Sequence record: OZ035782.1
Reading direction: 5' to 3' (one strand)
Length of the DNA stretch: 64,000 nt
Source: Felixounavirus LF110P2
This document shows, in pieces, positions 46,193 to 47,830 of this stretch. Numbering within the stretch: position 1 is the stretch's first letter; each line of letters begins with the position of its first letter. The notes beneath the pieces were generated by a model. It saw only the letters and a program-made list of their open reading frames with translations, was not told the DNA's origin and ran no database searches. Position numbers and translations under genes: made by a program.

Positions 46193-46231
46193 TCGACGCA
46201 GCGGGGCTATTTAGCCCCAGATACCTGAACA

Positions 46232-46258
46232 GCCCCTATTTAAAGGGGCTTTTTTACG
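46232..46258 (+). terminator. rho-independent terminator ending the small-gene array
   Basis: CAGCCCCT-ATTTA-AAGGGGCT hairpin plus TTTTTTACG. Confidence 0.55.
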
Positions 46259-46259
46259 T

Positions 46260-47830
46260 CTATCGAATCCTTATACAATCTCTTTCCATCACCTTTCCAG
46301 AATCTTCCCACTGATTCGATAGAACCTATCTCATACCTTAAAAGCAATAACTCTATAGTCTACTCTATAACCTCTTATCAAATCAACTTAAATAAAAGCC
46401 AATAACCCCAGAAAGGGGATGGCCCATTTAAACGCTCTATAAAGCCCTATAACAGCCTTATCAACCTAACTTAAGGGATTGCATTAACTCACCCTTAAAA
46501 GCTCTTTACAGGGCTTTATAGAGACTTAAAAGAATCTTATAAGGGTATAAGCTTTATTATATCGTTAGCATCTTGTGAACTACTAAAAAGGGGCTTGTTA
46601 GTGTCTTAAAAGTATGTTATAGGGGCTATAAAGTTACTTTGAAGTAGCTTAAAAGTTACGTAAATGCTAGCCCCCTTAACATTTTCTTAACAATTTCTTA
46701 ACAATCCCTACATAGTTATGCTTGTTAGCAACTTGTTAGCCCCTTGTTAAATCTCTGTTAAGACCACGTAAAAGCCTTGTAAGAGTCTTTGACATAGCCT
46801 TAAAAGCTCCTGTAAAGCTCTATAAAGAGGTGTTTGTACAGTTGGGGGATAGATACTAGGAAGAGGCTTAAAAGAGCTTATAAAGAGCTATAGAGAGCTT
46901 TTAAAAGGTATGTTTAGAGAATCACTAAGAAAGGAAAGGGAACGATAAGAAAAGAGTAGTGACCATGTTAATAGCTTGTTAAAAAGATTAAACACTTGTT
47001 AGAAACTTGTTAATTATCTTAACAAAATAACTCTTAAAAATTAACTTGTTAGCTCTTGTTAGTCATCTGTTAAGACTCTGTAAAGCCTATGTATCAACTG
47101 TTAAGAAACTGTTACACCATTGTTAGTTCTGTTAAGAAACTGTTAAGACCTTTGAAGAGTTGTTAAGAGCTTGAGAGAGTTGTTAAGAAATTGTTAAGGA
47201 TATTTTAAAATTTTGCAAAGTACTTGTAAGGGAGCTGTTAAGGGCTACCAAGCAGATATACATCCTAATCAGATATTTTTGAGTTCCTTCAAAGACCCTA
47301 AAAAATGACTTGATAGTCCTATTTTATAAAAATTTTAAGATTCTGAATAATTACCTATACAGTCTTTCTAAAAATACAGGTAGAAACAGGCTTATAAGAT
47401 ACCTTGTTAGTACCGTGTTAGACCTTGTGAGATAAGGTCTGTAAAGATATTCCTGTTAAGTTTGTTAAAACAGTCTATATAGAGGTTTAGTAATACCTAG
47501 TGAACACCTATAGAGAGTGTCATAGCTGACATAGAGATTAAGAGGTGTATAGGAGCTTCTAAGAGGGTATAGAGAGATGGTTAAGGTGATTGTATAGGTT
47601 GTTAAGAAGGCTTGTTAGAGGGCTTGTTAGAAGGGTTATACAGAGGGCTATTAAGACCACTAGATAGTTACTAAGATACTATATAGTACTATATAACTAT
47701 ATAGAGAGTAAGATTAAGAAGGTTGTTAAGAAGGATAGATATTTTGTTCACATATGATGGTGACCCAGAGGTTGGGACAACCGATAAAATTTTATAAAAA
47801 TAAAAAGCCCCCAATTAAGGAGGCTCTTAA
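46260..47830. repeat. about 1.6-kb non-coding region dense in short direct repeats (TTGTTAAG / CTTGTTAG / CTGTTAAG)
   Basis: More than 25 copies of (C/T)TGTTA(A/G)G and related AGCTCTATAAAGAG/CTTAAAAG units, e.g. 46681-46760, 46970-47200, 47590-47640; no ORF over 60 aa; between convergent blocks. Confidence 0.6.

Follow-up and report, generated by a model that had tools for sequence, protein, structure and literature searches.

Short direct terminal repeats (DTRs) are already known from several Felix O1-like phages. In the Felixounavirus UAB_Phi87, DTRs of 608 bp were determined by Bal31 digestion and run-off sequencing, and that report, by Bardina et al., places the genus in a DTR cluster of its own (PMC4837284). 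Phage vB_EcoM-Ro111lw has a T7-like short DTR of 613 bp, obtained with PhageTerm (PMC6454146), phage E9 has direct terminal repeats and ends that were set with PhageTerm (PMC11737134), and the Erwinia Felix O1-like phages Fifi106 and Fifi318 have short DTRs (PMC11984208). The authors of the Felix O1 genome inferred 'short terminal repeats' from genome size alone. The genome papers of Felix O1 and wV8 do not discuss the non-coding gap that is our subject here, and nothing on it was found in the PhageMaP paper on Bas63. The gap lies at positions 46193-47836 of a 64,000-nucleotide stretch (the window) of Felixounavirus LF110P2. At its centre is a direct terminal repeat, an identity that is already known for this genus. 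Our analysis suggests, with a probability of about 0.8, that the whole gap is the concatemer junction of a Felix O1-like myovirus that packages its DNA with short, exact, non-permuted DTRs as T7 does, and that positions 46670-47249 would be the DTR of the packaged genome. The DTRs reported for UAB_Phi87, Ro111lw, E9 and Fifi106/Fifi318 are at the same locus within Felixounavirus and Ounavirinae, where the region is 88-95% identical, and Felix O1 has the same synteny, with the gap between the homologues of ORF23 and ORF24.

The closest mechanistic analogue is T7. Its short, exact DTR lies in a non-coding junction with dozens of copies of one short motif in the repeat and in both unique flanks, and the same flank-repeat-flank layout is found in LF110P2. 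We counted 13 copies of CCTAAAG in the 160-bp T7 repeat plus 260 bp on each side, with lag-13 periodicity in the left flank. The T7 arrays, part of the T7/T3 concatemer junction, were reportedly named SRL and SRR by Dunn and Studier in 1983. The two junctions differ in their motif, which is TGTTA(A/G)G in LF110P2, in their period (about 10.4-11 bp as opposed to 13 bp in T7) and in their size, the LF110P2 repeat being 3.6 times longer. Further, LF110P2 is a myovirus with a T4-type large terminase (TerL), and unlike in T7, neither a phage RNA polymerase nor junction promoters were found. The early promoters of T7 adjoin its left repeat, and phiOL and phiOR are near its ends, whereas both flanks are transcriptionally closed in LF110P2.

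The strongest evidence for a terminal repeat comes from the ends of deposited relatives. Many GenBank records begin or end within the gap, and four independent ones carry the homologous segment at both of their ends: E9 from the Philippines (exactly 580 bp, 100% identity, mapping to 46670-47249 of the window), ZX4221 from China (exactly 591 bp, 100%, mapping to the same interval), GE_vB_7A from Georgia (581 bp, 99.5%, mapping to 46676-47247) and MET-P1-301 from Turkey, which was deposited in the opposite orientation (544 bp, 99.8%, mapping to approximately 46691-47233). Other records, among them those of BPS15Q2, NBEco004, Seyj1-1 and mistaenkt, also open or close at the same left boundary. 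The boundaries are thus fixed: those of E9 and ZX4221 are identical, those of GE_vB_7A are off by 2-6 bp, and no variation was seen in the boundary sequences among three genera. The repeat occurs at one place only in the record of LF110P2, as in most other records. The gap of UAB_Phi87 is 88% identical to that of LF110P2, and its boundary motifs are 614 bp apart in the record, while Erwinia phage vEam_W_28 has 442 bp at both record ends, located in the syntenic gap. These 544-591 bp segments and the published 608- and 613-bp DTRs support the terminal-repeat or packaging option, which was one of three offered by an earlier reading of the window from its letters alone (the sequence-only reading). 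Two other suggestions regarding genome ends were rejected. The terminal 'repeat_region' of PC79-13 is 127 bp long, which is a common assembler k-mer overlap, and that record is marked circular. A T5-like injection-stop region had been guessed from GC content and tRNAs, and a similarity search led to Felixounavirus instead. As separate observations, GU169904.1, the 147-kb record of Staphylococcus phage SA1, contains a 90.8% identical copy of the Felixounavirus terminal repeat at 135884-136463, and this record is probably chimeric or contaminated. A metagenomic Felixounavirus contig (IMGVR_UViG_3300045988_004931) breaks off at the repeat's left boundary and has two extra copies of the first ~75 bp of the repeat (5784-5936), which are either an assembly artefact at the genome end or a real local duplication.

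The gap that contains this repeat appears in many phages. A 1631-bp query from it was 100% identical to positions 69344-70974 of OZ035766.1, the unannotated 87,144-bp record of LF110P2 of which the window is the last 64 kb, and approximately 200 Felix O1-like phages of Escherichia, Salmonella, Shigella and Citrobacter carry the same stretch at 80-95% identity. Its counterpart in Felix O1 is the unannotated gap at 12313-13921, between ORF23 on the plus strand and ORF24 on the minus strand. In public records, the gap is left empty, has terminators marked at its edges or is tagged with 'repeat_region' features. Neighboring genes converge on it in LF110P2, with a plus-strand open reading frame (ORF) that stops at 46192 and a minus-strand ORF at 47837-48460. 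An intrinsic terminator at 46231-46250 (plus strand) ends the plus-strand early-gene block; it is annotated in AYO145A, and its stem is invariant in an alignment of four genomes from three genera, namely LF110P2 and Felix O1 (Felixounavirus), SUSP1 (Suspvirus) and Michonne (Mooglevirus). A second one at 47803-47828 (minus strand), annotated in AYO145A and Michonne, ends the minus-strand gene block. Both point inward, into the gap.

The longest ORFs in the gap are 41 amino acids, and apart from stretches filled with tRNA genes, no ORF-free interval of the window is larger. The sequence-only reading had described a repeat-filled, 1.6-kb stretch between convergent genes that lacked ORFs, and this description was confirmed, since no ORF reaches 60 amino acids and the motif YTGTTAR occurs 26 times on the plus strand and three times on the minus strand (17.8/kb, compared to 1.07/kb in the other 62 kb of the window). 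Its estimate of more than 25 copies is correct for YTGTTAR (29 copies); with the final G that it had required, the count falls to 15 (12 + 3). Copies do occur on both strands as it had said, but given the 26:3 ratio, 'both orientations' was an overstatement. The TGTTA core is present 35 times in the gap, where first-order Markov simulations of the gap gave an expectation of 5.4 +/- 2.3, and CTTAAAAG has seven copies, all on the plus strand. Self-similarity at 10-12 bp extends throughout the gap (lag-11 match fraction of 0.38-0.47 against a baseline of 0.27), and Tandem Repeats Finder (TRF) identified 16 short arrays, most with a period of 11. A coding role for the gap was rejected because no small ORF is conserved in the four-genome alignment. 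All six small ORFs are disrupted somewhere among the four genomes: five in two or three of Felix O1, SUSP1 and Michonne, and the sixth, at 46888-46995 on the minus strand, only in Michonne, by a stop codon. Short 'hypothetical proteins' are annotated in the terminal repeat or its flanks in E9 (PP886229.1, 241-333 and 87358-87450), Michonne (KT001916.1, 75015-75215) and UAB_Phi87 (JN225449.1, 15017-15312). Given that the small ORFs checked in the gap are disrupted in one or more of the four genomes, we take these annotations to be probable false gene calls.

Within the inferred 580-bp DTR (46670-47249), which is single-copy in a circular or concatemer map and would be duplicated at both packaged ends, there are 20 forward and four inverted TGTTA boxes. 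The left boundary element (46666-46705, minus strand) reads GCTA before the boundary and GCCCCCTTAACA after it, and then come three CTTAACA boxes in inverted orientation at 11-bp spacing (46675, 46686 and 46697; TRF period of 11 over 46675-46705); the element is invariant across the three genera. It is followed by a first forward array (46721-46762, plus strand) of four TGTTA boxes exactly 11 bp apart, at 46723, 46734, 46745 and 46756. This is the run that the sequence-only reading had quoted as an example; the run is present, one or two bases from the position it was given. The middle of the DTR (46763-46965) is free of TGTTA and consists of CTTAAAAG, CTGTAAAG, CTATAAAGAG and CTATAGAGAG units, with TRF arrays at 46861-46905. 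The main forward array (46966-47242, plus strand) has 16 TGTTA boxes from 46966 to 47236, mostly TGTTAAG or TGTTAG, at spacings of 9-11, 20, 31, 39 and 44 bp, with one inverted box at 47018-47024 among them. The distance from the box at 46756 to that at 46966 is 210 bp, or 20 turns of 10.5 bp, and therefore both arrays share the same helical phase. The right boundary element (47236-47262, plus strand) reads TGTTAAGGGCTACC before the boundary and AAGCAGATATACA after it. No other piece is as well conserved between genera: this element does not vary among Felixounavirus, Suspvirus and Mooglevirus, and we consider it a candidate site of cleavage or recognition. Together, the left and right boundaries make up an inverted repeat, with the 46666-46705 stretch pairing with 47180-47244, and an inward reading from either physical end therefore gives (GGTA)GCCC(CC)TTAACA.

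The TGTTA boxes of the DTR are phased and selectively conserved. Their vector strength is 0.74 at a period of 10.4 bp, which exceeds the maximum of 500 random placements, and in a phasing test on pairwise distances the observed value was reached by none of 5000 random placements. The same phasing (0.75-0.80) was found in Felix O1, UAB_Phi87, SUSP1 (Suspvirus) and Michonne (Mooglevirus). Across the three genera, 89% of box-core positions within the DTR are invariant, compared to 67% of other positions (Fisher p = 2.5e-7); outside the DTR, the same alignment shows no difference in invariance between cores and other positions. Further, in five Ounavirinae lineages the syntenic gap is rich in TGTTA (15-22/kb as opposed to 2-7/kb in the flanks). 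In Erwinia phages the remainder of the gap is unalignable, yet a TGTTAAG run with spacings of 11, 11, 9, 20, 20, 20 and 11 is kept, as is a GCAGATATACA or GTAGATATACA element at the right boundary, where these phages read CTAA before the boundary and G(C/T)AGATATACA after it. The sequence-only reading would have been contradicted by repeats that are not conserved in relatives, and what we found is that the boxes are kept across the subfamily. In Erwinia phage phiEa104 (Kolesnikvirus), the left flank (2120-2420) has approximately 15 copies of a different array, TTCTAA(A/G), with the repeat's TGTTAAG boxes kept; the flank arrays are thus lineage-specific and the repeat boxes are not.

The length of the repeat, taken for each genome as the distance between the two boundary motifs, is also structured. 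In 23 genomes it falls into classes of 569/570, 579-582, 591/592, 601-603, 613/614, 623-625, 633-638 and 658 bp, which are 11 bp apart (vector strength of 0.83 at period 11). Felix O1 differs from LF110P2 by exactly one 11-nt box unit, which is missing from its first forward array. Such variation in whole 11-bp units, together with the many short tandem arrays, shows active slippage, and similar TGTTAAG tandem arrays occur in unrelated viral contigs. It could be argued, then, that replication slippage produced the repeats as a by-product, in DNA that needs only to be identical at both ends, the boxes having no sequence-specific function. We regard this as very unlikely: box cores are significantly more conserved than spacers within the DTR, phase is maintained over a 210-bp segment without boxes and in three genera, motif and local spacing survive in the Erwinia phages even though the remainder of their gap cannot be aligned, and the gap is better conserved than the adjoining genes. 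In 17 Felixounavirus loci, conservation was 0.82 for the left flank, 0.91 for the DTR and 0.95 for the right flank, its most conserved part, and 0.74 and 0.82 for the adjoining genes. In the flanking gene blocks, 45600-45900 and 50300-50900 are common to only ~0.3-0.5 of the 17 loci and look like hot spots of accessory-gene replacement beside the genome ends.

The arrays in unrelated contigs come from a scan of a viral contig collection for TGTTAAG-N4-TGTTAAG, in which most matches were single and due to chance. Arrays of TGTTAAG boxes at or near multiples of 11 bp were seen in contigs without nucleotide similarity to the window, namely L047 (6100-6450), L115 (590-800), L143 (the same element as in L115) and L065 (7664-7714). 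In L065 the array is a perfect tandem repeat of five AACTTGTTAAG units. In L115 and L143 the boxes are accompanied by an array of CCTTTTTTAA and a strong sigma-70-like promoter, and a small terminase gene follows approximately 4 kb downstream. These four contigs were chosen by the pattern itself, and their neighboring genes gave no clear link.

Based on these observations, we propose the following mechanism for the packaging junction. Transcription from both adjacent gene blocks would be stopped by the terminators before it reaches the junction. The ~24 TGTTA/TAACA boxes, lying on one face of the helix (10.4 bp), would be occupied by multiple molecules of a single sequence-specific protein, for which the most plausible candidate is the component that lets the packaging machinery recognize its DNA. 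The bound DNA would be wrapped into a nucleoprotein complex and the junction thereby marked, after which the large terminase would cut at both boundaries, between GCTA and GCCCCCTTAACA on the left and between TGTTAAGGGCTACC and AAGCAGATATACA on the right. Since the boundaries are an inverted repeat, the same element would be presented in opposite orientation at each cut. DNA synthesis would duplicate the repeat between the cuts, as proposed for T7, and after infection the repeat would allow progeny genomes to join into concatemers. With the same ends as its relatives, LF110P2 is expected to have virion DNA that starts with GCCCCCTTAACA and finishes with GGGCTACC; these ends, the box-binding protein and the cutting chemistry are the parts of the scheme that we infer.

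The identity of the box-binding protein deserves separate consideration. In the available text of Bardina et al., only the large terminase was found and no small terminase was identified in the genus (PMC4837284). The annotation of E9 likewise lists only TerL, with Terminase_6N and Terminase_6C (T4-type) domains; the TerL gene of LF110P2 lies just past the end of the window. In SPP1 pacL/pacR and the R sites of lambda cosB, the small terminase recognizes repeated, phased boxes. These sites, like the LF110P2 junction, have several short, helically phased boxes by the terminase cut, and by analogy the arrangement would fit the wrapping of DNA around an oligomeric recognition protein. They differ in having ~2-4 boxes per element and a known small terminase (TerS), compared to ~24 boxes and no identified TerS in LF110P2, and they yield headful cuts or cohesive ends rather than an exact DTR. 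With this in mind, we tentatively suggest that the boxes could be the recognition array of a packaging-initiation protein that replaces the 'missing' small terminase, wraps the 580-bp repeat into one particle and places the cuts at the inverted boundaries; we hold this as a conjecture that is somewhat less likely to be right than wrong. Repeat length would then be set by counting helical turns, and natural length variants would therefore differ by whole 11-bp units. The observed 11-bp classes fit a constraint that holds the boxes in phase.

Alternatively, the boxes may bind a protein other than a terminase, such as a phage factor for end protection or ejection control or a host nucleoid or winged-helix regulator, and the repeat would then be a protective site or one that controls DNA entry. 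Both physical ends would carry the whole array, reading inward through the shared boundary element, and the absence of a known small terminase in the genus leaves room for this. Head-to-tail boxes 11 bp apart are typical of the sites of winged-helix proteins, the pho box CTGTCAT-N4-CTGTCAT may be compared with CTGTTAA-N4-CTGTTAA, and the terminal repeat of T5, with its repeat-rich injection-stop region, is a parallel for a site that controls DNA entry. We nevertheless consider a non-terminase binder improbable, because no candidate protein was found and the repeat boundaries coincide with the ends of the array, as a role in cutting and packaging predicts.

A replication origin was a further option of the sequence-only reading. 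Here, an initiator would bind the phased TGTTA boxes and melt adjacent AT-rich DNA, as in iteron-type origins, either instead of or besides the junction's role in packaging. Phage P4 ori/crr, with its octamer TGTTCACC, and plasmid iterons are origins of this type; they too consist of phased short direct repeats near AT-rich DNA, and the P4 octamer shares the TGTT start. The short direct repeats of the LF110P2 gap are in helical phase, its non-coding DNA is strongly conserved, and it contains 82% A+T at 46983-47047 and 47299-47380 in the lowest-GC kilobase of the window. In addition, the T7 promoters phiOL and phiOR near the genome ends are associated with secondary origins, so that regions close to ends can combine both roles. 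However, unlike P4 ori and plasmid iterons, this locus has no adjacent initiator gene and no DnaA or integration host factor (IHF) sites: no DnaA box (with up to one mismatch) and no IHF core was found in 46193-47836, while both are present elsewhere in the window, and the only matches of the flanking ORFs are to PHROG families without an assigned function. Genes for replication lie at 7.8-17.4 kb of the window, with the primase-helicase gene 32 kb away. Iterons are usually 17-22 bp long, whereas the units of this array measure 5-8 bp and recur every 10-11 bp, and the array sits exactly between mapped genome ends. Cumulative GC skew is maximal here, as at a terminus, but this evidence is weak because skew follows gene orientation. 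As none of the signatures that could be tested supports it, we view an origin at this locus as doubtful.

The unique flanks of the repeat were considered as well. The left flank (46193-46669), which would lie just inside the right-end repeat, is made up of 11-bp-period units such as CTTAAAAG, CTATAAAG and CTATAACAG (lag-11 self-match of 0.38), with CTTAAAAG at 46337, 46494, 46525, 46605 and 46648. It contains the 10-bp inverted repeat CTATCGAATC and GATTCGATAG that the sequence-only reading had noticed (46260-46323). Both arms are present, at 46260-46269 and 46314-46323, but they are not conserved: the structure is indel-prone, conservation dips to 0.56 at 46300-46349 around the second arm, and that arm is absent from Felix O1 and Michonne. 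The right flank (47250-47836), which would lie just inside the left-end repeat, has TATAGAGAG and ACTATATAG units, TRF arrays and no conserved ORF; it is AT-rich at 47290-47380 and carries TGTTAG/TGTTAAG clusters at 47405-47467, 47600-47629 and 47724. Elsewhere in the window, CTTAAAAG is strand-biased (19 copies on the plus strand and five on the minus strand), with clusters in two divergent intergenic (promoter) regions and within GGGGCTTAAAAGCCCC-type hairpins, where it occupies the loops (10589-10729, 56145-56223, 30828-30850 and 41576). The junction flanks and the phage's control regions thus share a motif vocabulary.

The third option of the sequence-only reading was a regulatory hub, and it could be extended to propose that the conserved flanks, especially 47250-47836, are a non-coding RNA or a hub of transcriptional regulation. 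Conservation of 95% in the right flank would be consistent with this, as would folds more stable than those of shuffled sequence (z = -3.0 on the plus strand, -2.1 on the minus strand and -3.75 for the left flank) and the grouping of CTTAAAAG, common in the left flank, at the window's two divergent promoter regions. Such z-scores are to be expected from interspersed inverted repeats anyway, however, and the remaining evidence lends the proposal no support. There was no Rfam match at E < 0.08, and both listed matches were far under their gathering scores; promoter-like sites are at chance level (10 compared to 6.9 +/- 2.6); the terminators on both sides point inward; and the right flank has a 29-nt insertion in SUSP1 and an 11-column deletion in Michonne. 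A regulatory RNA or hub in the flanks is therefore extremely unlikely in our estimation.

Several points weigh against the packaging junction that we propose. The ends of LF110P2 itself are assigned by homology with relatives, and from record to record, deposited or published boundaries disagree by 2-20 bp. There are also TGTTA boxes beyond the DTR (47405-47724), where their cores are no more conserved than background, and phasing over the whole DTR is not significant in the Erwinia phages (0.68 compared to a null maximum of 0.76). Annotation and family searches revealed no small terminase or other box-binding protein. The sole positional candidate for a small terminase is a 66-aa acidic ORF directly upstream of TerL, of which 64 codons lie in the window (63809-64000) before its end cuts the gene; it had no Pfam family match, belongs only to PHROG 4397 (function unknown), and nothing besides its position supports it. 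The analogy with T7, whose repeats have to our knowledge no established function, is no proof of a role in packaging. The array may also have an additional function, such as that of an origin or of end protection.

Outside the gap, 26 tRNA genes were found on the plus strand at 58281-63585, including two each for Met, Gln, Lys, Ser and Arg and three for Leu. This number is slightly above the 22-23 reported for Felix O1 and wV8.

Taken together, these results indicate where the real ends of the unannotated LF110P2 genome probably lie. Most Felixounavirus records have been opened arbitrarily, and the 1.6 kb at this locus have been left unexplained or filled with spurious small 'hypothetical proteins'. 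The available parts of the DTR papers give the existence and length of the repeat, and we found in them no mention of an array of boxes or its phasing, of boundaries that form an inverted repeat, or of length classes 11 bp apart. As far as our searches show, the phased array, the inverted boundaries and the quantized repeat length are apparently undescribed, and they are an incremental addition to a known DTR. The subfamily offers an unusually legible junction, with one phased box motif, inverted boundaries, length variants that differ by single 11-bp units and no known small terminase, which allows the binding-and-cutting model to be put to a direct test in available phages, for example Felix O1 or Bas63. 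The making of exact terminal repeats is poorly understood even for T7 and T5; if the boxes do act as a recognition array, they would represent a defined cis-acting code for exact terminal repeats.

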